From positions 620,001-683,012 of the forward strand of contig JAPETS010000015.1 in the NCBI GenBank assembly GCA_026023565.1: 63,012 nt of DNA, in the 5' to 3' direction. A model generated the notes under the pieces. The model was not told the origin of the DNA and searched no databases. It saw only the letters and a list, made by a program, of their open reading frames with translations. The DNA comes from Cirrosporium novae-zelandiae. Taxonomy: Eukaryota. Within the stretch, counting starts at the first letter, position 1, and every line of letters starts with the position of its first letter. Positions 1-18,747 of the stretch are shown here, piece by piece. The translations under genes were made by a program, and so were the position numbers.

Positions 1-1956
1 AAACGTATGGGTTGTAGTTTGGAATTGGCTCATTGAGAACGGTGTAGAAAAGAAAACCATGTAGAAGGAAGGGAAAATCGAAACTTACCACAGCCAACTG
101 CGTCGTTGCCCGTTTCTGGTTATACTGCACTCTTAGAAGCAAATTTCGACAGAATGATATATCATTTCCGATATCCTCCTCTATGATCTTCCGATCATGC
201 TCCATACGTTGTTTCCGAGATCCCTGAGTAGAATCCGAAATCTGGACGTTATACCTAAGGATCGTCTGGAAAAGTTGGATCAGGGCATTCACTCTCAGCT
301 CTATGATGCCGAGGGAATTGCTGCAGCTATTTAGGGATCGAGTTGTCTGGAGATCAACGGCAAATGGATCGCCCACTGGCCTCCATCGGAATGTGTGCAT
401 ACCTGTTGTCTCTTCGATGCTGTTCAGGCGGCGGTCAGCAGAGTCAGTTTTCTCGGAGCAGAGATCCAAGACAACTTCTGCAACTTTGAAGGGAAGGAGC
501 ATCGGGTGACAGGCCAGGTGTCTAGAGCCATTGAGGAGGACCCATACTTGAGCGAGGGCCATGGTTGTTTGGCCGAGGAAGATAGCCGTGTTCATGCCAC
601 TAGATACATCATGAGTTACCGCGTACGTGGCGAATCCTGTAAAATGGAGGCCGGTTTTGAATATAAATGCTGGGAGCTGTTAAGTGCTAATACCCAAGTG
701 CTCGAGTGTATATAAACTCACATAAATGGGTTGGTTTTCGGTCACTGCCATAGCTGGTTTGCTTCCCGCTGTGTGCCGTTCTTTGGTAGATAAGCTGTGA
801 ATACTTCCTGGAAATTTTGAAAATTTCCATAATGCTGCTGAAATCTGCCGAGGAAAATGGGATCGCTTCGAATTTTCTCTCGTTGTGGACTCGGTCGCTA
901 CAATTACCTATGCTACAGATTTTTGTAAATGAATAGTTCGGGACAGGGATCTAGAGGGTTCAAATCATACATCATGCGAAGACCTCCGTAAGGTAATAGT
1001 CCATCAAGTTTGCCTGGCCTCTTTGAGATATGTTTAGCTTTGGAGTTGAGACCATAGGGGCCCAATGGTGTCCGTCGGTTCCTATAAAATGGAAAAGATC
1101 ATACCTTCTTGAGCCAATTATAGATCCCATCATCCAAGACCAGTGATCTTGTCATTTTGGTCACATGCTGCGGAGAAGTATCAGCACGGTTTTCTGGGCG
1201 TTCTTTCGATCGAATAGTGGCATCTCGTACATCATAATTGTATATGTCCAATGTATCCATTCGAAAGTTCGTTTCTCCTCTAGTAGGATTCCTGGTGGAT
1301 CTAACAAATTGTATCTCAGACCCAGGCTTAATCGCCCAGTAGATATCATAGCCTGAATCACCCTTGGGTCTTTCATGACAGACAAAGATCTTGTTTTCAT
1401 TAAGCGTACGAAGGATATTCCTTTGCCAAGTGGTTCCATTTTTGTAATAGCTGAAGGTACAAGATATCCACGAGCAAATTTGCATCATGGTCTGCTGTCG
1501 GTCTGGCGCACGGAGAATCGCCATCCCTATGAGATTCGTCCAATTGTACGGTGGTTTTCCAAGCTCGTCTTCAACTGGAGGCATATCCTCTGGAGCAGGT
1601 ACTCCGTCGTGTTGCGAGGGACCCACCCATGAGTTCGGATTGATATTGCTGCTTTCTAGGATACGGTAGTCGTCGGGCAAATCGGCATCGTATGCATCAT
1701 TTTCGGAAAACGACGGCTCCTCGTCCGTTGGATTCAAGGGAGATTGCCTCCTTCGTCTCTTTAAAACCTTGTCCATACTTGGGGAAGCTGCACCATGGGA
1801 TTTTTCATCGGTAAATTGTTCAGTTGAGTCCTGGTCAGGGGATGGGTCCTCGTCAATTATACGCATAGAATTTGATATGCCTCTATGACTATCATTATCA
1901 GCAGATTCATCTGCTACGATCGTTGAACTGGCATAAGTATCGTCGAGATCAATCAT
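1..1956 (-). CDS. Chimeric gene: degenerate forkhead domain fused to a fungal CorA-like (Mg2+ transporter-like) protein; 3' end lies outside the window
   Basis: Exons 1956-1105, 1020-971, 912-722 and 669-89 join in frame through GT..AG introns (1104-1021, 970-913, 721-670; next donor GTAAGT at 88). Exon 1 carries a forkhead fold (KPPYNWTNLIGMAILRAP...WISCTFSYY...YWAIKPG, ~1557-1306). Later exons give WLKK/RPG..GGLRMI, IPFSS..F, HPMLLP, IEETTG and QKRATTQLAV, motifs I recall from the soluble part of fungal CorA-like proteins. Confidence 0.7.
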
Positions 1957-3221: not shown

Positions 3222-4172
3222 TCAAAATGCTTGACCAATATACGGGTGTTGAATTTCATCAATATATTCTTGAGTCAAATGGGACATGGATATTGCACGT
3301 CCATGCGTCAAGCCTCGTGAGAAGTATGGAGGTGGGCTTTGAAATATGTTTGAACGCGATTCCGGACTACCCAGATCAGTTTCATCGGGCGACTGATCAG
3401 CATTTCTTTCTATTAACAAAGGAGCAGGTGGCGTTGTTGGCTCAATCGACCCAATTGAGTGACCAGAATAGTTACTTATACTATCACGATCAGACTGTGC
3501 CAATCTCATTCTCTTTGGGCGGTGAGGATTCTTTGGAGGTATAGCCGGTGCTGCCTTCTCTTTCGATATAGACATGAGAGGCTCTGTGGAATGAATGATC
3601 TCATCAGAAATCAAACTCTCTCGAAATGAGTCAGGGGGTATGGTTAATCCGTCCGCTTCTGGCGCGCTATACTGCAGGTTTGCTTGGTATCGAGCTTGCA
3701 TGATCGACTTTTTGACTAAACGATTGCGACGACTGCGTCGATGTTCTAGGTCGATGGTAGGGCTTTGAACTGGACTTGGCTGGGGAGAGTATTTTCCGTC
3801 AGGTCGCCAGGATGTTGTCCATTCTGGACAAGGTGATTTTCGTTCGAAGGGGTTTTCTCCTCTCTCTGCTCTATAGGCGGGGTGATCGGATATATCAGGT
3901 GCCGGGATGTCGGGGGGTACCATAAGAGCTCTTTCTTGACTGGATTGAAATCGATTTCGAGACGCTCTAAAAACACGCCAAGGAGAAGGACCGTCTTCTA
4001 TCATAGACGGATGGTTATGACGACCCCCTTGCCTTTTTGCACGAACGCAGAAAAATATCATTAGAGCAACAGCTGAAAGGATGGCAACACCGAACACAGT
4101 CGATAAGGTAATAATTAGGATCTGTATACTATCTGAGGAGCCTGATTTCGAAGTTGAGGATGAGGTAGTCAT
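3222..4172 (-). CDS. Hypothetical single-pass membrane protein with Pro/Ser-rich cytoplasmic tail
   Basis: Uninterrupted ~316-aa ORF: short Ser/Thr-rich N-terminus, hydrophobic helix (ILIITLSTVFGVAILSAVALMIFFCV), basic stop-transfer RAKR, then PxxP/PPPY-rich tail ending GQAF. First ATG is at 4172. Confidence 0.75.
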   Translation of the reverse strand: MTTSSSTSKSGSSDSIQILIITLSTVFGVAILSAVALMIFFCVRAKRQGGRHNHPSMIEDGPSPWRVFRASRNRFQSSQERALMVPPDIPAPDISDHPAYRAERGENPFERKSPCPEWTTSWRPDGKYSPQPSPVQSPTIDLEHRRSRRNRLVKKSIMQARYQANLQYSAPEADGLTIPPDSFRESLISDEIIHSTEPLMSISKEKAAPAIPPKNPHRPKRMRLAQSDRDSISNYSGHSIGSIEPTTPPAPLLIERNADQSPDETDLGSPESRSNIFQSPPPYFSRGLTHGRAISMSHLTQEYIDEIQHPYIGQAF

Positions 4173-6006
4173 GGCTGTCGCCAAGAACTAAACATTCATA
4201 GGTTGTGGGTAGCTCCAAGGAGACAAGAGGTAGAAACAATAGTCGAGATATTTGTAGACTCCCTTGAGGCGGTTTCAATCTCAAAATGCGATCCTACCCT
4301 AGCCACCGAGGAAGAAAGGCATCCATGAATTATATGAGAAGAGTGTCGTCCGATGTATAGGTGGAAGGAGCGTTTCGAGACGTGGCAGCCTCTTGCGCTG
4401 CAATGTGACCTGTAATTAGATGCTTCGAGGTAGAATGTGAACTTCTCATATCGGTTTGATAGGAAGCCAGAAAGGAATGAAAGGGATAATATATCTATCG
4501 GGGGCAGTGGGACATAAGAAAAGGGTAAAGAGAATCATTCAATCGTTAAAAAGGAAGTTCAACACAACAATAGGTTTATCGGTGAAAGTACGGAGGCTGG
4601 TGAGGGGGCAGCATAGCTAGATAAGAAAGGTTCACGGCGAAGGGCGAAAGAAAATGGCAAAAGAAAATATAGGCCCAAGTAGCCTCTATGAGTATTATTT
4701 ACGGAGGACCTCATGCTTTGTAGTAATTAGCTGAAAGGCAATGGCAAATTTGGTAACGAATAATAAAGTGGTGAGAGAGAAGTGAACGGCGACCGAAGAA
4801 TGCATGTTATTGATGCAATACCAATAGATCTGTTGTATCCGTCCTGTAAGTTGTAACTAATAAAAAATAAAGGTGGCGCTGGTGATCAAGGATGTCGGGG
4901 TTCTGCATCATGGCGTTGTCTACTGGACATTTCAATCGAATAATCTATCCAGAAAACGACAAACAAAAAGGAAGAAGGGAGTGAAGGGTGAGCACAGCCG
5001 GAGTAACCAGGCACGTGTTGGATTGGCCAGGATAGCCAGAAGGGCAGGAAGCTCGAACATGGATACTTTGATAGGAACAATTAAAAACCTGAAACTTGGA
5101 ATTTGTATTTGCGGGGGTGTTGTTACTGTTATCACCATTGGAAGAAGCCTCTTTGGCCGCCGCCACCAACCGAGTCACAGCCTCATGTGGGTGGGACTAT
5201 TTTAACGACCTTGAGTTGATTTGATCTCGACATATAGATCCTGAAGATCCTACAAGCAATACCCTACTCAAAGCATGTTTGATAAAGATTAGAACACATT
5301 CTCATCATTCATTACCCGCCTACTAAGTAACTAGACCAATGTAATGCTCGTTTGCGCATCACCTGCTTTTGTGTTCCTGCTCTATTCGGAATACACCAGG
5401 TCCGCAATAATAAACACACGCGCATATATTCTTTGCATACCATCCCCATTCCAATCCTTGCCATGTAGGCAGACCTTTCCTTTCCTGATTGAAAAAAAAT
5501 CTTTGTTCCTGAACATACTGGCAAGACTGGCATCAGAATCTGTCTCTGCTGTCCAGCAAGCCAGTACATTCATTCTCCCAGTAAACCCAACCGTTCCTGT
5601 CCATCCATCATAAATGCCCACTTCAAGAGACCAATGAAATAGGTATCAAGAAAAAAAAAAGACAAAGGGAAGTACTGTTTCAGCCCTTTTCCGTCCCATT
5701 CACCGAAACTAACGCCGAGACCCTTCGGCCTTTCCATCCGTTAGAGAAGAAGAAAAGTGAAAGAAATCCGCTAAATGTTGCCAGACGAAGGTTGGAAGAA
5801 AGTGAGGTGAGCCAGCTACCATGTAGCGCAATCGGTGGAGATCCCCAGTGAACTTCTCTCCTTGCCCGAATAGCTCACTCAGTAGAGAGTTAATGAAATT
5901 CTACGATAACAGAGGCCGTAATGGAACAAAGGGTAGGTACAGATACAGCATGTGGTTTGATTTGAAGTCATACAACTCCGTATAAGAAATCATTTCATTC
6001 CGTGCA

Positions 6007-9000
6007 TCATACAACCGTCATGACATTCATACTTGGGGCAGTTAGATCGTTCTCTCCTCCGCCCAGAGTTGCGCCGTGAGATAGATAGGCATTTGCGCTC
6101 TTACTCTTTGGAAGGCGTGGCTTGTTCAAAGGCGATTCATCAGGGGAAGGGTCGAAAATTCGGCATAAAGGAGAATCCGCAAGGGAAGGGGACGGAATAG
6201 AGGGGACTTGGGGATTCTCGGATTGACGCACGAGCTCTTTAAGTTCTCGAGTCACTGTACCGGCTCGTGCTACGAGATGTTGGAGAGAGGTTGTGTCGAA
6301 TGGCATCTTTTTATGGCCATCCTTGTGTGTAGAATCCCTAGGACTGCGCTGTTTATTAATAATTTCCAGAACAGACATTGCTTGTGCAATTGATTCTTTC
6401 CGAGGTCGATTTGGGGGTGGTGTAGTATTGTGCCCATGGATAGTTGAAACACGAGGTGAGACTTTTGATTCGGGGCTACAATGGCTTCCATGAAATGGAG
6501 AGTTGTCCGAAAGAACGGACTTTCTGCGACTCCGTATGGAGAATGTTTCCTCTTCGAAAGCATCGGAATTAAAACTCTGCGGAGAGGATGATCGTGGTGC
6601 AGGGATTAGATCTTCATCCAGTGTTGCTAAGTTCACAATGCCTTCAGCCTCTTTCCACAAAGCTGAAGAAGAGCCCGGGACAATTCCAAGCGAATTAGCC
6701 TGGACCCGGAGACGCTTCAGTTCTTCAACCAAGCGTGTTAACTCCTGGACTTGTCCAAATTGACCGTGAACACTGGCTTGTCGGTCAATTATAGATTGAG
6801 GAACTATCACCCCAAACTCTGAGTTCGTAGCGTCTGAAGTATCATTTCCTATGCTTTTTTCGCTTGACTCGTCAAATTCAAAATCGTCGTTCCAGTCCTC
6901 CGTAGCACCCCTATTTCCCAGTCCCCAAGTACCAAACTTAATGTTTGTTGGATGGGCATCACCAGAAGGAGGCTTTTGAAGTACAGGAACACTCTGACTT
7001 CGAAGATGTAGTGCATTTGGGGCGCGACGTGCAGGTGCACGGCTTCCACGGGAGTCTAGTAATTGTTTCCCATAAGAAGTCTTTGGCCGTGAAGATATAC
7101 CCTGACCATTATGCTTGTCGTTTTGTGATTCTGACCAGTCAAATATATTTGATTTCAGGTCCTTTGGTTTTTTGGAAGCCTTAGACGAGCTGTAATGAAG
7201 TTCTGTGGTAGGGCGAGAGTGTTGGTTGCTGATTTTCCGAAACATATCACGAAGATTGCGATTTCCCAGATGCGTTGCATTAGAAGTTTCGTTGTCTAGA
7301 TCCCAATCCTCGTCTTCATCGTCCTCGATCTTACTCTTGAGACCATCACGGTTTTGTTCGTGTTCTTCTAACCTGTCATCTGCAATCTCTAGACCGAGGA
7401 ACAAGTCATTGGTCTCTTCGAGTGCAAACTTTGGGGGCACGTCCCCCTCGCGATGAGACCTGTGGTGGCGAACTGTAGACGGGCTGTCTTCATTCCAGCT
7501 GCCTTTAATATTTGGGACTGGAGTAGCATTATTGTCATCGAATTCCGTTAGAACTGTCCGAGAAATATCCCTGCTCGTGGTGAATGGGTCATGGGATATC
7601 AGATCCTGTAATGCTATTAACTTTTTCTCGCCCATTTCCGAGGGCGGAGATTCGTCGAAGATTGTTTCTATTCTCGGCCCTCGAGCGCCCGAGTTGCTAC
7701 TGCTAGTAGCACGTGTAGGCAAAGAATCAAACACTGTCTCACTCCGAAAGTCAAGCTCATCATCCTCTCCCGAGGTAAAACCTCTCGTGTCATTATCAGA
7801 ACCTATTAGAGTCGATGCACGATCGGATGGTACGATAGAATTGCGTTTTATCTTGCTGGAAGAAACCTTCGGAGATGAAGATGATGGCGGGGAGGAGATG
7901 GATGAACGATCGTAAGGCCGAGTATCAGGAGACCCATCTGAAGACCTTGAAGCTACTGCAGGGAATTCGATTTCGAATGCTGACAGACGCTGCAAGGGGG
8001 GCAAGGGAGATGATGGGCGACGATGACTCGTGCTAGAAGCGGTCTCTGTTGTTAGGCGTGATAAGCTATACCTTGGATTGAGACCATCGCTTGAGGCAAT
8101 GCGGCGCGGTCGTGGAACCATCTCATCCATACTCCTACGGCCATTTTGTTCATTCGTATGGCGTGGTGATGGAGCCGATACAATCCTTTTCGTAGAAAAG
8201 AATTCAATCCGACTCCTTCTGTGGAGTTTCTCGACCCGATGAGCTTTGGCTGAGAGCGGGGAGACAGGCGACACCGTCTTCTCTTCGTCTGGTTGATTTT
8301 GGTTTAATTCATGTGATATGTCAAGTGTTGGGGGGGGTTGAGTTTGAGCGTGTTCTGTAATAGGAGAATGTTGATCAGGCGGGATAGCAGTTGATGGCCG
8401 CCTTCGTCGGTTCTCCCCATCGTCGCCCTGAGGAACGAGGTTGAACATGGAGCTGGCATCGTCTTGGGAGTCATTAGACATGATAGAAGTAGACATTAAA
8501 AGGGTAGGCGGCCCGTCCATAGTTGGTGCTATACGCCTGATAGGATAATTCCTGTGTATAGTTGTGCTTGTATATCGCCGTCGAAATGGCCCTTTTTTTA
8601 CTTTTGCAAAGAACGGGCTCCAAGAAAAGGTTGTTTTGGGTAGTGTTGGGTGTAGAGCTAGGGGGTTGTTGGGTGGGTGTTGACGTTGCCTGGAGACTGA
8701 ATCAGAGTCACAACAGGCGGCGTCTTCGCGAAAGAGTTCTTGTAAGGTGGCGCTCCGCTGATGACTTGTAGCGGGCCTTCGAAACGTCGGGACCTGAGAC
8801 CTGGGGGATGAACAGGTTGTGTCCCTACGTTGCGATGAGGATCTTTTCACGAGTTTGTTTGGAGATGAATGTTGAATATTGGTAACCGCATGAGGCATTA
8901 TCGGCGCTGTGGACCCATGTGAGAAGAATGAGATTGAGGCAGATGGAGGACGAGAATTTGAGGAAGCACTCTGATTATGAGAGGAAGAAATTGTTGACAA

Positions 9001-9485
9001 TCGTCTCAACCACGAAGATCTCCGAGTCTGGAGGTCAGGCGTTTGCGAATGACTCCTCAATGAAGAGGTCCTCGAATCTCCTTGACCTGATACAGAGCTA
9101 TCTTTCAACCCTTCAAGTGCTGAGATAGATCCTCGTTTCCGCCAGTCTTGTGTATCATTGGCCCCCCCAGATGTTGCTTGAGATCTTCGCCAGAGGATTG
9201 AGGAGGATGTATTGGCGCGCGAAATGCGATTCGGAGGTCGAACGGTACGATTGAAAGGATTTTGAATGGTGTTGACCAGGCCTTCCAAGCGATCATCGGC
9301 ATAGTCTGTTGTTTGTTCATTCAGGGTGGACAATGGGACTGTTGTTGTTGGTCTTCCGAAGGCGAGACCAACTGCTGCAACGCCGAGAGTACCAGCTGCG
9401 GAGAGCTACGGGAGAACATGGTCAGAAAGTGACGTTTACGATATAAGGTAATGGGCTTTCGGTGGGAGCTGACGCAGGGGAGCAT
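6007..9485 (-). CDS. Large Ser/Pro/Arg-rich, mostly disordered hypothetical protein (~1135 aa)
   Basis: The 3.3-kb ORF extends upstream to an acceptor (CTGAC...CCCGTAG, exon from 9405, reading LSAAGTLGVAAVGLAFGRP). A short first exon starts at ATG 9485 or 9509. C-terminal ordered blocks: FGTWGLG, EDWNDDFEF, RQASVHGQFGQVQELTRLVEELKRLR, LWKEAEGIVNLA. Confidence 0.85.
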
Positions 9486-12400: not shown

Positions 12401-14549
12401 AAAAGGTGTTCGTTCGTGTCTTTGCCCCAGTAACCAGTTCTTGCCAATGACGCGAGATCACGCCGTCCTTTCCCGTACTGCCCTGCCCTCTCCTCAACAC
12501 CTGTGTCTAACTTGGTCTTTGACCGTGGTGGAGAACAAGAGACTGTGCCACAGCCAAAGGATACTAAGATCCAAAAGTATACATACTAACTAGACTCCAA
12601 TGGTCATGGTGTTAATGATCTGTCAGATTCAAACATAACCTGCCGATTTCCAGCATACATATTTAATCAATTTCAGCTATCATCTCTCCCCCCTAGTTCA
12701 CCAGGCAATTCCTTCGAGTAGTAAATAACCAAGGGTGGAAGAAAGCTCCATGTTGGAAACGGTTCGTGTGACAGCCAATTCTGAAAAGGGTTTGCCACAT
12801 TTAACCTCGGCCCCAACTATTGGAATGATTTGCCCTTTAATAATGCCAGGGACCTTGTCTTGACACATTACGATCCTCAATGTCGTAATGTCCTCTATAA
12901 GTAGAAAGTTGATAGACGGAAAACAAGAAATCCTACTTGATAAAGCACCCACACCATATCCAATTGGCCAGTAATAATTTCCCCGGCGCTTAAGAGAAGG
13001 ACGCTTGGATACACTCAAGGCGCTTGTATTTATATATATCTCTCCATTAAGCGCATATACCATGTAGATGATTTCACTATCGACATTTGCCACCTTGGCA
13101 AACAAGGAGACCTAGTAAGGAGCCAGAGACATTCCGTAAATCTTGACTTCCATGCATTTATCTGCATGTACTGTACACGTGTTAATGGCTGAAAGGTTGT
13201 TGAAGTGAGAAGTCAGGTATTTCATTTGCCGGAACATTAATAATCCAGCGGCATATCAAGCATAAAGCCTTGAAATATTTATCCCTTCACGCCATCCCAC
13301 TTGAAGCCGCTTACGGAAGTTGCCAGTCCTTAATTTCCCCTCCTCCATTTCTTGATATCTTAGGCCAGGTCAATTCGTTTTTCCCTTTTGGTTATATTAA
13401 TAGACACCCAATACCATGGTTCACTGAGTCAGGGGACAGGAATCTACTTAGGTACCCAAGTAAGATAAAACAAGTAACTAGATGATGCGATCGTTACGAC
13501 TACTTTCCTTGCTTCTGAAGCATGAAGCCTTCCTTAATTAATAAATAATTAATAACAATCATGATTTATATTGTAAATGTCTTGTAGACAGAAGAGGTAA
13601 ACGTACCCTACAAACCATCCGAATATATAACTGGTGATGAGCGGACCAGTACCGGAATTATATGAGAAGGAATGGTTTCCTTGAGTTTCCTTGAATTACA
13701 CACAGCATGTTCCTTGCAATCATGCATTGCCATCGGTCATGCAAACAATCGTGCGAATATCATTCGATTATGAAATATTTTGTTTACCATAAAATGTAGC
13801 CCATGTAGCCTATGTATCCCATGTATTTTGTAGCACATGTCCGCTTTGACAAGGAGTCTATGTAGCGGGGGGGACGGGGAAAACCCAGCTGGAGATTAAA
13901 AAAAGGAGATAAATATTCGATCTTCCGAGGTGGTAAAGAAGATAGAGAAGGTTGAAGCTTGGAAATACTGTTTGATCTGGAAAATCCGATGGCAGCGATT
14001 TCAAGCGATCGTGAGGGACCAGATGGAGTATATGGACATGGATCAGTGAGTACTAATGACATGCTGAGTACGTAGAAAGTGGTTTCTTCGATAGATAGCG
14101 GCAGCATCATTTTAAGGCCATGTAAGGCCGAAGTTGTTAGTGCGAGGGAGATCAATGGCTGAATGACTTCGATGGCTCAACGACAGCCACACATATGGAG
14201 AGTAGGAGTGGGAGAGGGAGGGTAGTACCTGTGGCGGCCAAAGTAAACTGGTTTCTCTACGTGGACGAATTCGAAGCACCTCCACTTCATCGCATCGTAC
14301 TTGCAAAACTTATTGTATTCATAAAGGTTGGATATTTGGTAAACATTTCAATCAACTGAAAAAAAAAAACAAAACATCTCAATTCTCGACTGAGTTGCAT
14401 TGTCATATTTCAACACAAATCTCCTTCAACTCGTATTCACAAGCCTCCTCTCTTAAGCTTCCGAGGCTTAACCCGGGCTCTGACTGGCTCATCTCTAACG
14501 CCCGCTCCCCCAGTTCCAGCCAAACTGGGGATTGTGAAAGCTAACCCAA

Positions 14550-17500
14550 ATGAGTATCCGCGCCACACCTCTCGCAAAACCACGAGAGCCAGAACCACCA
14601 GCACGAAAGCGCATCGACATTGGCAAGTTGCCGCAAGTCATGGAGCATTCAGAGTATCGAAATAACGACTCCGAGGGCTCAGGTTCGGACGATTATCCCG
14701 TCGACCGACCTTTCCCTACTTATGGAGATGACAGCTACGAGGATGGAGATGGGCAGCAACATCTGACGCCTACCACTACTGTTGAGAACCTCACGCCGAT
14801 GAGCGCATATACACCCGGTTCTACTTCTTGGGGGACGTCTTCTCAAATGCGGGCACGAGCGGGGAGTGGAGGAGCTGACATTTCCCAATTATATGATGGG
14901 CCTCCTCCCCTCGATAAGCTTACCGTCTCCATAAAGGCCCAGCGACCAACAGGACCGGCCAGAACACCTTCTAATACATATGCTCCGGTGCGAAGACCTG
15001 CCCCTCAATTCGTTTCCTTTGGCTCGAGTCGCCACCGTTCGTCGTCAGCAGTCCGTTCATCCAAACGAGATCCAAATGCCCAATATAGAGCACAAGAGAA
15101 GGCGTATGTTGAGCGATTGCGACAAGATCCTACAAGCGATTATTTCGAGAATGATATATATACTCCGAGTCTCACTCTCAGTTCCGATGTCGATACCGAT
15201 GAGGATTCTCCATCATCCGATGTACGCTTCGAGAACGATCCTTATGACCAAGAAACCCAGCTGTTCTTTGCCAATGACAACAATAGCCCGTCTGCTGAAG
15301 AGATGCAGGTACCTGAAAACCGTGAACGGCTTGAATGGCATTCAATGCTGGCGTCAGTCTTGAAAGGAGACGTCGTAAAACAGGAAAAGCAGAGGCTGAT
15401 CGGAGTCTCTGACTCTCCCGGAAATGAGGCATTAAACAATGAACTCTGGCTTGGGGTTCGGGCGAAATATTTTGGAAGATCTTTGGCTGCTCAAAAACGC
15501 TTAGTAGATGAGGGAAGATTAGAGGTGGGGGCAGTTATTGAAGCTATCTGTGCATTCGAGGTCAAAGGAGAGACTGAAGCTGGCAAGCCTGCGGTCAAGC
15601 AGGTCCAAGACGTCGTAGCAAAGATTGAGAAAATCGAATCTCTCTATCCGACGGAGAAGGATATGCTTGTGAACAATAAGAGAGCGCGCGATGATCAATT
15701 CAAATTTAGCTGCAATACCGTTATAGCCTGGCACAACATCACTGAGCTAATCAACACCGAGCTTAAGGTACTACAATCTTGGGTGGGGAACGACGAACTT
15801 GATTTCAGCAAATCTAGAAGTAGATTTGCTTCAGAGGGAGAGCTCACTGATGAATCTTCGTTTCTCGATCGGATTCTGAAAGAGGATGTGCTCAAAAAAT
15901 TGCAAAATGAACGAGAGAGTATGCTCACTGGAGTAAACGAGGTTATTAGGAAGGCCAAGTCGACTCTCATTGAAAATTTTGAAGAATTTAGCCGGTGTCA
16001 TCTTCCATTCTATATTGAAGAACTTCTTATCCTCATCAATTTCCCTTCTCGACTTATTCAAGAAATTATACGCATGCGGTTATCTTACGCTAAGAATATG
16101 AAGGATACAGTACAACAGTCGTCGATGATTTCTGAGCAGTTGATTTCACAGTTTCGAATCCTACTGAGGCTTGCCGTTTCGATCAAGCTCGACTATATAG
16201 AAATATCACTGGCGCAGGATAACTGGGAACTTCCTCCATGTATTGACGATTGCTTTGATTCTGTCGCATTAGAGGCACTGAAATTTTATTTCAAGTTGCT
16301 CCACTCAAAGATGTTTTCAAACAAAAATTCTTTTCGAGAAGCCGAAATTGTTGAGCAGGAATGGGAGTTTGCCACGGACATTGGTCGCCATATCGAAGGT
16401 GGTGATGTAGTGGTAGCAGAGCAATTCAGGTAGGCACCCACTGCTGCAGAGGAAATGCAAGGCTAACAAACATAGTTCTTTGACAGCCAAAGCTCTTTGG
16501 CGGTTGACAACCCATTTTGAACGAGAACTTCAAGGACGTCCGGAACTAGGTGTTGATATGAATAAACGGTATAAACAGATCCTTGATTCTGTTCGAGTCA
16601 GACAACGCAAGCTTTTCCGATTTTCACGAGTACTTGGTCAAAAATTTGAGAACTCCACAGAGTATAATATTAGTTTAAACCATGGTCAACTAAAGTCATT
16701 CTACGATGCTCTAATGCTATCTAGACATGTTCTGGTGGAATACTCGAATGAAGGAAACCAGGGCATATATCTTATCGCCTCGCCTACTTTACAACATAGG
16801 CCAAGAGAACTTCGTGCTATCCTTGGTACTTCATTTCATGCGGATGATACCTCTGAGGATCCTAGCAACCCATATGTTTTGATCCTCAGCCCGGAAGAGC
16901 ATTTTTATTGGGAGGGAGAGACGATGGAAGCCGATATCCCTGAGCTACCAAAAGATGTCAAGAGGGGTCGCGCGCGTCTGGTTGCAGATGGTTCTCTACA
17001 ACGGCTACAGAATGCTAGAATAGCACTTGTTCAAGCTACAGGACTTCAGCTAGATGTTCTCACTGAGCAGCGTGCAAATCTGACTAGGGTCAATTGGGAA
17101 CTTTCAAGAATCAAGAAGACTACTTACAAGCTCTCGAACACCATTATGGAGAGCGTGGAGATTATTCAAAAGAAAACCAAAGGGAAGGATAGTCAAGATT
17201 TGATCCAGATGTGCTTTGCTTTTGCAACCGAGTTTGGTAAACGCTCAGTAATGTACATGGATGCGAACCGACGATTGATGAATAACTTAAAGCTCACTCG
17301 ACTCGCTCTTGACTGGGTGAGCTTCATATGTGACGATTGCGTTGCTTCCGACAGAAAGACGTTCAAATGGGCTGTGGTGGCCTTAGAATTTGCAATGATT
17401 ATGACCCGTGGACAGGGTATTCTTGTCATCAGTGATGAGGAATATGCACAACTCCGGATCAAGGTTGCTGGTTGCATGTCTCTTTTGATATCTCATTTTG

Positions 17501-18747
17501 ATATTATGGGCGCCAGGTCAACCATGGCAGCTCAAGCAGAAAGGCAGCGGATGGATGCAATTGCAGGTCAATTCCGGCGTATGGATATTCACAGACTAAA
17601 AAATGACGAGGAGGCATCAAGCTATGTGCAAGAACAGCGTTTGTCCCAACTTGCGGATATTGACGAGGCGAGGAAACAGAAGGAGGCAGAGAGACAGGCT
17701 CTTGGACGAGTCTTAGAAGATACAAACGAGGCTGATCGCTCCTTGACATTCCTTTCCTCGTCTGCAACCAATGTCACCATGAGATGGCAGCAAGGGCAGT
17801 ACATTGGCGGTGGTACATTTGGATCAGTATGGGCAGCTTTCAACATTGACTCGGGTTATCTGATGGCTGTGAAAGAAATCCGTCTTCAGGACCCACAGCT
17901 TATTCCAACAATCGCCCAGCAAATTCGTGACGAGATGGGTGTCTTGGAAGTTTTAGATCATCCTAACATTGTTTCTTACTATGGCATTGAAGTCCATCGT
18001 GATAAAGTCTACATTTTCATGGAATATTGCTCGGGTGGGTCCATTGCTGGCCTCCTCGAACACGGCCGCATTGAGGACGAGACGGTACTCCAAGTCTACG
18101 CGCTTCAAATGCTCGAGGGTCTTGCTTATCTCCATGAATCCGGTATCGTCCATCGCGACATTAAACCTGAGAATATTCTTCTTGACCACAATGGTGTCAT
18201 CAAATATGTCGATTTTGGTGCTGCAAAAATTATTAGCCACCAAGGTAAAACCCTTGCACGTGAAAGTCCAATGCATAGGCCTGGTGGCATTCCCACCAAA
18301 ACTCGACCCGCAAAACAGAAATCCATGACTGGTACTCCCATGTACATGTCGCCCGAAGTGATCAAGGGTCATGATGAAGGCCGGCTTGGCTCTGTCGACA
18401 TATGGTCACTCGGCTGTGTGATTCTTGAAATGGCAACCGGTCGGCGTCCTTGGGCATCCCTCGATAACGAGTGGGCTATCATGTACAATATCGCCCAAGG
18501 CAACCCTCCATCGCTTCCTTCAAGAGATCAGCTAAGCGATGCGGGCATCGACTTTCTCAAGAGATGCTTCGATAGAGATCCAAAGAAAAGGAGCAGTGCG
18601 GCAGAGCTACTGCAACATGAGTGGATTCTGCAAATTCGAAGACAGGTCGTCGTCGATAACCAGTCTCTAGCAACCCCCAATGGAAGTGAGACTAGTAGTG
18701 GGGGGCCGAGCGGAATGGGCTCAAGACAGAATAGTGGGCTTGATTAA
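14550..18747 (+). CDS. SSK2: HOG-pathway MAP kinase kinase kinase (Ssk2/SskB/Os-4/Wis4 family)
   Basis: Exons 14550-16429 and 16476-18747 (intron GTAGGC..GCTAAC..TAG). N-terminal RERLEWHSMLASVLKGDVV motif. C-terminal kinase with WQQGQYIGGGTFGSV, MAVKEI, HRDIKPEN, DFG, GTPMYMSPE, LDNEWAIMY. Confidence 0.96.

Follow-up and report, generated by a model that had tools for sequence, protein, structure and literature searches.

We examined one end of a 63,012-nucleotide stretch of DNA from Cirrosporium novae-zelandiae (contig JAPETS010000015.1, positions 620,001 to 683,012; this whole stretch is referred to as the window here), where a forkhead (winged-helix) domain and part of a CorA-like protein lie in one reading frame. 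All coordinates given below are positions in the whole window; the gene in question is on the minus strand and runs off the window edge at base 1. A first-pass annotation, made from the sequence alone, had read this locus as a chimeric gene in which a forkhead fragment was added ahead of a CorA-like gene, and its coordinates were all verified on the minus strand. Judging from the sequence, we consider it reasonably probable that the locus holds one fused gene, in which an Hcm1-type forkhead fragment and a member of a CorA-fold family share one continuous frame, and that this gene is lineage restricted. Both parts are of known kinds, and it is their combination that is not known to us.

The predicted gene starts within an open frame that extends without a stop from 2019 to 1102 and passes through a second ATG at 1260. 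Exon 1 (1956 to 1231) begins with the ATG at 1956-1954, is Hcm1 derived up to about 1261, and then continues into the CorA-like family part, of which it encodes the first 10 codons, starting from the ATG at 1260-1258. It is followed by a candidate in-frame intron of 63 nucleotides (1230 to 1168; GTACGA...CTGATAC...CAG) and by exon 1b (1167 to 1105; HVTKM...GIYNWLKK), which corresponds to the N-terminal region of the family and is placed by a profile alignment as well as by a phase 0 junction in L001, a related metagenome locus described below, where the junction follows WLAG instead of the WLKK found here. The unspliced open reading frame (ORF) ends in KKV-stop, and its TGA (1101-1099) sits within the GTATGA donor starting at 1104, as had been claimed in the first-pass annotation. 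Removal of this intron 1 (1104 to 1021, 84 nucleotides, GTATGA...AAG), whose position and phase are common to L001, restores the reading frame. Among the acceptors checked by hand, 1021 is the sole AG that restores the frame of the family; an acceptor at 1014 was rejected, since it leads into a stop. Exon 2 (1020 to 971; RPGKLDGLLPYGGLRM..) matches the GGLRL element of the family, with the phase 2 junction of L001 at the same place. Intron 2 (970 to 913, 58 nucleotides, GTATGA...TGTAG) has an alternative in-frame acceptor at 898. Exon 3 (912 to 722; ..ERKFEAIPFSSADFSSIMEIFKISRKY..) is placed by the profile alignment, and intron 3 (721 to 670, 52 nucleotides, phase 1, GTGAGT...CCCAG) follows HL in both loci, with G next in L001 and S here. 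Exon 4 (669 to 89) encodes the conserved soluble core of the family, with the motifs HPMLLP, EETTGMHTF, TTRSLNS, and YNQKRATTQLAV. The window holds the start of intron 4 (88 to 1), with the donor GTAAGT at 88-83 and a possible acceptor AG at 30-29.

The splice model was assessed with local HMMER and BLAST runs. Joined together, 1956-1105, 1020-971, 897-722, and 669-89 form a stop-free frame of 553 codons, and the spliced frame down to base 89 amounts to 537 to 553 amino acids, likewise with no stop. A local profile of the downstream family, built from 15 members of at least 402 amino acids that were picked by length, begins to match the spliced model at residue 232 and follows it through all junctions until exon 4 ends (E = 1.6e-37, hidden Markov model [HMM] positions 32 to 349). 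The claim that three introns link the forkhead ORF to a continuous downstream frame thus held in its essentials, but it had to be amended in two places. First, while both acceptors of intron 2 keep the frame, the family profile scores the acceptor at 913 higher than that at 898 (125.3 versus 113.5 bits), and an intron 2 of 970-898 is disfavored for its lower profile score. Second, there is the additional candidate intron at 1230-1168: once it is excised, the profile alignment begins at HMM position 32 instead of 53 and scores 113.5 rather than 108.7 bits. A phase 0 intron of L001 matches it, with LDLWISA standing before the intron in that locus and LDIYNYD in the window. Since its length is a multiple of three, the frame holds whether it is spliced or not. 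Upstream of the coding region, at 2004-2009 on the minus strand and ∼50 nucleotides ahead of ATG 1956, the sequence TATAAA lies in an AT-rich stretch; this is a consensus match only.

The forkhead domain (residues 134 to 217; 1557 to 1306, minus strand) matches Pfam family PF00250 at E = 9.8e-19, with 67.7 bits compared to a gathering cutoff of 27 and over profile positions 2 to 87 of 88. Among solved structures, 29 forkhead chains reach E ≤ 1e-5, with 2hfh in first place (E = 4.8e-15). The profile check that the first-pass annotation had proposed for this domain was therefore positive. The sequence PEDMPPVEDELGKPPY stands directly ahead of the domain, and the basic run KRRRR (residues 66 to 70; 1761 to 1747, minus strand), which had also been pointed out before and which we read from the sequence, resembles a nuclear localization signal (NLS). 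A search of the Atlas with exon 1 returned forkhead clusters only. We collected 48 long forkhead relatives (498 to 2,000 amino acids, most of them ∼720), all of which contain PF00250 alone and nine of which bear the JGI name HCM1, in line with an Hcm1-type origin of the fragment that the first-pass annotation had described as Sep1/Hcm1-like. Seven of the 48 (the top four and three named species) were aligned with the ORF of the window. The similarity to Hcm1-type proteins comprises the domain itself, ∼15 residues before it (PEDMPPVED), and ∼12 residues after it, to about residue 228; scattered N-terminal columns are common to the window and these relatives as well. Neither the ORF nor the rest of the window contains the conserved C-terminal blocks that are present in all seven aligned Hcm1-type proteins, and tblastn with two full-length Hcm1-type relatives found the domain as the sole match in the window. 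The architecture of a full-length Hcm1 orthologue is thus absent here, and the forkhead part is a truncated Hcm1-type copy.

This copy has diverged considerably. Its domain is 50 to 57% identical to those of the relatives, whereas the seven aligned relatives are 68 to 98% identical among themselves, and of 54 columns without variation among the Hcm1-type relatives, the window retains 34 and has changed in 20. The hydrophobic core columns are largely retained. Helix 3, the recognition helix (WQRNILRTLNENK; 1428 to 1390, minus strand), was located from alignments with Hcm1-type relatives and solved chains and is where the divergence is most evident: it keeps the buried W, I, L, and K, while the polar N, S, R, H, N, and S of the Hcm1-type relatives are all substituted. 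The helix 3 motif reads RNILR, compared to NSIRH in all seven aligned Hcm1-type relatives and in the solved FoxD3 and HNF-3 chains; that is, the window lacks the N(S/A)IRH motif of the recognition helix. According to reference PMC8501956, the N and the H of this motif contact bases directly and the R is also base specific. The replacement of NSIRH by RNILR makes canonical reading of FKH-site DNA doubtful, and it weakens the suggestion, made in the first-pass annotation, of a membrane-tethered transcription factor. Shifting the register of helix 3 by one residue, so as to preserve an N-to-R spacing, was also considered, but W, I, L, and NK can be aligned with no gap, and the shift was therefore rejected. 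Wing 1 differs as well, with GYD in the window and GKG in the Hcm1-type relatives.

To identify the downstream part, we searched with the exon 4 frame. A Pfam scan of the window frame 679-2, which contains exon 4, found no family at E ≤ 1, and a word-index search with the downstream frame among longer proteins gave 680 candidates, none of them at E ≤ 0.001. An exhaustive phmmer search of 1.84 billion representatives with exon 4 yielded 121 relatives at E ≤ 1e-3, including 51 at E ≤ 1e-10 and 6 at E ≤ 1e-30, with a best identity of 57%. Many of these 121 are single-exon calls, and a Pfam scan of the 28 longest found a subthreshold CorA match in three. A profile search with 17 sequences then led to 72 proteins from Leotiomycetes, Eurotiomycetes, Sordariomycetes, lichen fungi, and two Calocera species, in which full-length members have 460 to 514 amino acids. 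Precomputed PF01544 annotations exist for 5 of the 72, and a few are named by their source as “Mg2+ and Co2+ transporter CorA” or “CorA-domain-containing”; “hypothetical” is used in the family as well. Examples are P0020 from Acephala macrosclerotiorum and P0002 from Loxospora ochrophaea. The short exons of the window also relate to this family on their own. The spliced segment from M1260 through exon 3 alone scores 20.9 bits (E = 7.8e-6, Z = 1,000), with 2.4 bits as the best of 200 shuffles. When single N-terminal pieces of 13 relatives were compared with the window frames, five fell on the exon 3 frame, with weak scores (best E = 0.007, Z = 1,000).

The first-pass annotation had likened the downstream motifs to a variable CorA-like family of fungi, and this likeness is borne out at the level of the fold, as predicted for a relative, but only weakly by sequence. 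A PF01544 match at E ≤ 0.1 is present in 14 of the 17 members, but the better of the two scores seen is 26.1 bits, below the gathering cutoff of 27. Among sequences in the PDB, the family profile reaches CorA only at E values of 7.7 to 9.6, which is not significant, and the top matches are unrelated coiled coils. On the side of structure, an AlphaFold2 model of the relative P0020, computed with 17 sequences, has a mean predicted local distance difference test (pLDDT) score of 69 and a predicted template modeling score of 0.63. Foldseek places Thermotoga maritima CorA on top for this model (E = 1.9e-8, probability 1.00, TM-scores of 0.42 to 0.60 over ∼400 to 435 columns), and all 18 listed rows are CorA. 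We thus regard the downstream family as CorA by predicted fold, as modeled for the relative P0020, with the sequence hallmark absent. An entry named “CorA-like,” PF26616, appeared only as an Atlas lead (rank 11, score 0.90) and was unconfirmed in the Pfam scans, whose copy of Pfam possibly lacks it.

The hallmark in question is GMN, which is given in the literature as the main sequence feature common to the CorA, Mrs2, and Alr1 subfamilies. When the last 111 residues of P0051 are used as the query, CorA is matched at E = 0.018 (seven of the eight matches are CorA), and in this alignment FLPGTFIATIFAMP stands opposite CorA FMPLTFIAGIYGMN, so that AMP occupies the place of GMN. The P at the AMP site is near invariant across the 17 members (consensus FAMPLFNW). 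With AMP in place of GMN, a canonical Mg2+ channel or its selectivity is unlikely in this family.

Gene structure could be compared with L001, the only confirmed relative among 178 pattern matches, whose exon 4 is 54% identical to that of the window over 193 of 193 residues. The L001 gene assembles to a family member of 500 amino acids (E = 2e-102), which uses an ATG of its own and opens with 53 polar residues. Five introns of L001 match those proposed for the window in position and phase: they are located after LDLWISA in L001 and LDIYNYD in the window (phase 0), after WLAG and WLKK (phase 0), after GGLRL and GGLRM (phase 2), after HL in both (phase 1), and after QLAV in both (phase 0). By its profile match and its gene structure, the downstream part of the window belongs to the Ascomycete CorA-fold family of the P0020/L001 type. 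L001 has two further exons (exons 5 and 6), with ...DSSAMKTIAVLTMVFLPGTF... and two hydrophobic helices, and the two transmembrane helices are present in P0002, P0010, P0011, P0020, P0029, and P0051 as well. Since these helices come after the QLAV exon border, in the window they would lie past the edge, in agreement with the expectation of the first-pass annotation that the C-terminal helices lie beyond it. L001 has the intron after QLAV, and P0001 and P0004 show it as well, in their case translated in frame. Four database proteins (P0001, P0004, P0014, and P0048) are single-exon calls that read through this intron, which they translate as VS..., consistent with GTnAGT; because database proteins read through introns, lengths there tell little of the true gene length. 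No forkhead was found within 5 kb upstream of the L001 gene by tblastn with the window model, whose sole match was exon 4 (E = 4e-64). The upstream divergent gene of L001 (2350 to 3336 of that locus, minus strand) codes for the catalytic core of a glycosyl hydrolase (PF11790, E = 2.3e-39); this neighbor differs from that of the window, so the two loci are not obviously syntenic.

Within the window, the two parts meet in a single exon, in which the forkhead domain ends at residue 217, the Hcm1 similarity ends at about residue 228, and the family homology starts at residue 232, just before ATG 1260. The suggestion that the internal MDTLDIYNYD at this ATG may be the ancestral start of the CorA-like gene fits well with this order. 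As both parts are in one uninterrupted exon, the segment between 1306 and 1260 cannot accommodate a stop, a terminator, and a promoter. This bears on the main rival to a fused gene, namely, that two products arise from overlapping units, with the CorA-like protein starting at ATG 1260 on a transcript that begins inside the forkhead ORF and the forkhead remaining as a relic, an upstream ORF, or a 5′ leader. We consider such an internal start unlikely, if well short of negligible. An unconstrained frame of 232 codons would hardly have remained open: in a substitution-only simulation, it was still open in 9 of 400 cases at an amino acid distance of 0.30, in 2 of 400 at 0.37, and in 1 of 400 at 0.45, and by this measure the forkhead part does not look long dead. 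Codon usage points in the same direction. With 12 long window ORFs as the training set for codon log-odds, frame 0 scores highest of the three frames in each part, and the N-terminal 133 codons show clear coding-type usage (0.33), next to 0.16 for the linker and tail, 0.13 for exon 4, and 0.10 to 0.38 for held-out control ORFs. A weak further point is the context of the start codons, with C at −3 of ATG 1260 and A at −3 of ATG 1956.

A number of observations weigh against the fused gene, and several of them speak directly for the internal start. The family homology begins exactly at ATG 1260; family members normally have 460 to 514 amino acids without a forkhead, PF00250 being found in none of the 72, and L001 uses its own ATG. 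The DNA-reading residues of the forkhead are lost, and the codon log-odds of the forkhead domain in frame 0 are near zero (0.001). Likewise, helix 3 keeps 4 of its 10 invariant columns compared to 30 of 44 elsewhere in the domain, a difference that is not significant (Fisher P = 0.15). The simulation ignores indels and takes all divergence as neutral. The fusion occurs in none of the 48 long forkhead relatives, where close orthologues called as single exons could escape, and a Pfam scan found a forkhead in none of the 28 longest phmmer relatives. At the other end of the gene, the transmembrane region of the window and the position of AMP or GMN fall beyond base 1, and the last 28 nucleotides (28 to 1) after the possible acceptor at 30-29 read PIPNYNPYV, which resembles the start of family exon 5 (VYNFM.QKD in L001 and P0002) only at YN. 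With this loose fit, either intron 4 would be longer than 88 nucleotides or exon 5 would be unusual or damaged. The rarity of the combination also agrees with the remark in the first-pass annotation that this architecture was not known to have been described: no fusion was seen among the 48 forkhead relatives, among the 72 family relatives, or within 5 kb upstream in L001, and a full-text literature search for a forkhead with a CorA-like architecture found none, although the searches were narrow and architecture tables were outside their scope.

A further possibility is that the locus makes a short forkhead protein of 285 amino acids, with intron 1 retained, translation ending at TGA 1101-1099, and the downstream exons untranslated or decaying. 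The unspliced ORF does end neatly in KKV-stop, and the splice signals of intron 1 are imperfect in that its acceptor at 1021 is AAG rather than YAG and the branch point is an incomplete match. Nevertheless, exons 2 to 4 are open, keep the motifs of the family, and are 54% identical to L001, the position and phase of intron 1 are conserved with L001, and the last 52 codons of the short protein would be the N terminus of the family without a function of its own, so that we regard this version as quite improbable. Finally, an assembly chimera or an unexpressed fused pseudogene, for which the single occurrence and the odd reading of the last 28 nucleotides would count, is very improbable, given that an in-frame join with a diverged forkhead (50 to 57% identity) is unlike a misjoin of two live genes, that four exons are all open, that base composition is even across the window, and that the adjoining genes are ordinary fungal genes.

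The upstream neighbor (3225 to 4187, minus strand) is an open frame of 321 amino acids, rich in Ser and Thr and with one hydrophobic stretch (ILIITLSTVFGVAILSAVALMIFF), for which no Pfam family was found at E ≤ 1e-4. An open frame of 1,132 amino acids (6010 to 9405, minus strand) contains a C-terminal Etd1 septation protein domain (E = 1.5e-13). Further on, two adjoining frames (14538 to 18747, plus strand) have a match to the MEKK4 N terminus and a protein kinase domain (E = 1.1e-66) and are probably one gene for a mitogen-activated protein kinase kinase kinase of the Ssk2/MEKK4 type, interrupted near 16417-16433 by an intron or a change of frame.

For the fused gene, we propose that the 5′ part of a duplicated Hcm1-type gene would have supplied the start codon, an acidic/basic N-terminal region with the KRRRR run, and the winged helix, together ∼232 codons. 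The in-frame junction would lie inside a single exon and connect this piece to the structural element that comes first in a member of the Ascomycete CorA-fold family of 460 to 514 amino acids, where the Hcm1 piece would replace the poorly conserved N-terminal tail of the family. The expected product would have ∼700 amino acids, with a cytoplasmic N-terminal forkhead module, a soluble alpha/beta and stalk domain, and two C-terminal transmembrane helices, the last predicted from the relatives. By analogy with CorA, it may be oligomeric, with its N and C termini both facing the cytoplasm, which would put the Hcm1 module at the far end of the cytoplasmic domain. The membrane part is probably not a canonical Mg2+ channel, judging from AMP at the filter position of the relatives. 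As for the forkhead, the loss of the base-reading N, R, and H of helix 3 while the hydrophobic core is kept suggests that it is more likely a fold-retaining cytoplasmic appendage with an interaction or regulatory role than a canonical FKH-site transcription factor. The fusion could be young and still drifting.

The idea of a membrane-tethered factor can be put in a more specific form, in which a pentameric CorA-fold protein would carry five NLS-bearing winged helices that are released by a signal, or repositioned by it (for example, at the nuclear envelope), and have a noncanonical DNA specificity. The signal, an ion or metabolite that the membrane or funnel domain would sense, would then be coupled to chromatin, with the DNA specificity set by the rebuilt helix 3. 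We give little credence to this version: the forkhead/CorA-like architecture is supported, whereas function as a membrane-tethered transcription factor is unsupported, as is the integrated decoy domain that the first-pass annotation had offered as an alternative.

If the fused gene is expressed, it would make a forkhead domain part of an integral membrane protein, and its winged helix, with the core kept and the base-reading residues lost, would be a possible reuse of a DNA-binding fold. If it is not expressed, the locus would be no more than an ordinary member of the family with the remnant of a partial duplication ahead of it. The locus also draws attention to a large, uncharacterized Ascomycete family that has the CorA fold without the GMN filter.

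When compared with known systems, the N-terminal part is closest to the Hcm1-type factors of ∼720 amino acids from Fonsecaea, Cladophialophora, Endocarpon, and others, with which it shares a domain of 50 to 57% identity and short flanks. In contrast to these factors, which continue into their own C-terminal blocks, the window has only the first ∼232 residues, and it shows RNILR in helix 3 and GYD in wing 1 where they have NSIRH and GKG. With the Ascomycete family of 460 to 514 amino acids, the window shares the profile match, the positions and phases of introns, and the conserved motifs, but the variable N-terminal tail of that family (residues 1 to 29 of P0020 have pLDDT scores below 50, and L001 has its 53 polar residues) is represented here by 232 Hcm1-derived residues. 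The pentameric Mg2+ channels CorA, Mrs2, and Alr1 have the same overall fold as the model of P0020; the sequence FMPLTFIA in the first transmembrane helix of CorA aligns with FLPGTFIA of the family, which differs in having AMP instead of GMN and in staying under the Pfam cutoff. Membrane-tethered transcription factors that are released by proteolysis, such as SREBP/Sre1 and Spt23/Mga2, offer a parallel in layout, in that the predicted product would likewise have a DNA-binding-type domain at the cytoplasmic N terminus, here with an NLS-like basic run, and transmembrane helices at the C terminus. It differs from them in that no cleavage site or evidence of processing is seen for it, and a full-text literature search found no forkhead example among factors of this kind. 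Moreover, unlike in these factors, the DNA-reading residues have been lost in the window product, and its membrane part would be a CorA-fold oligomer rather than a simple anchor.

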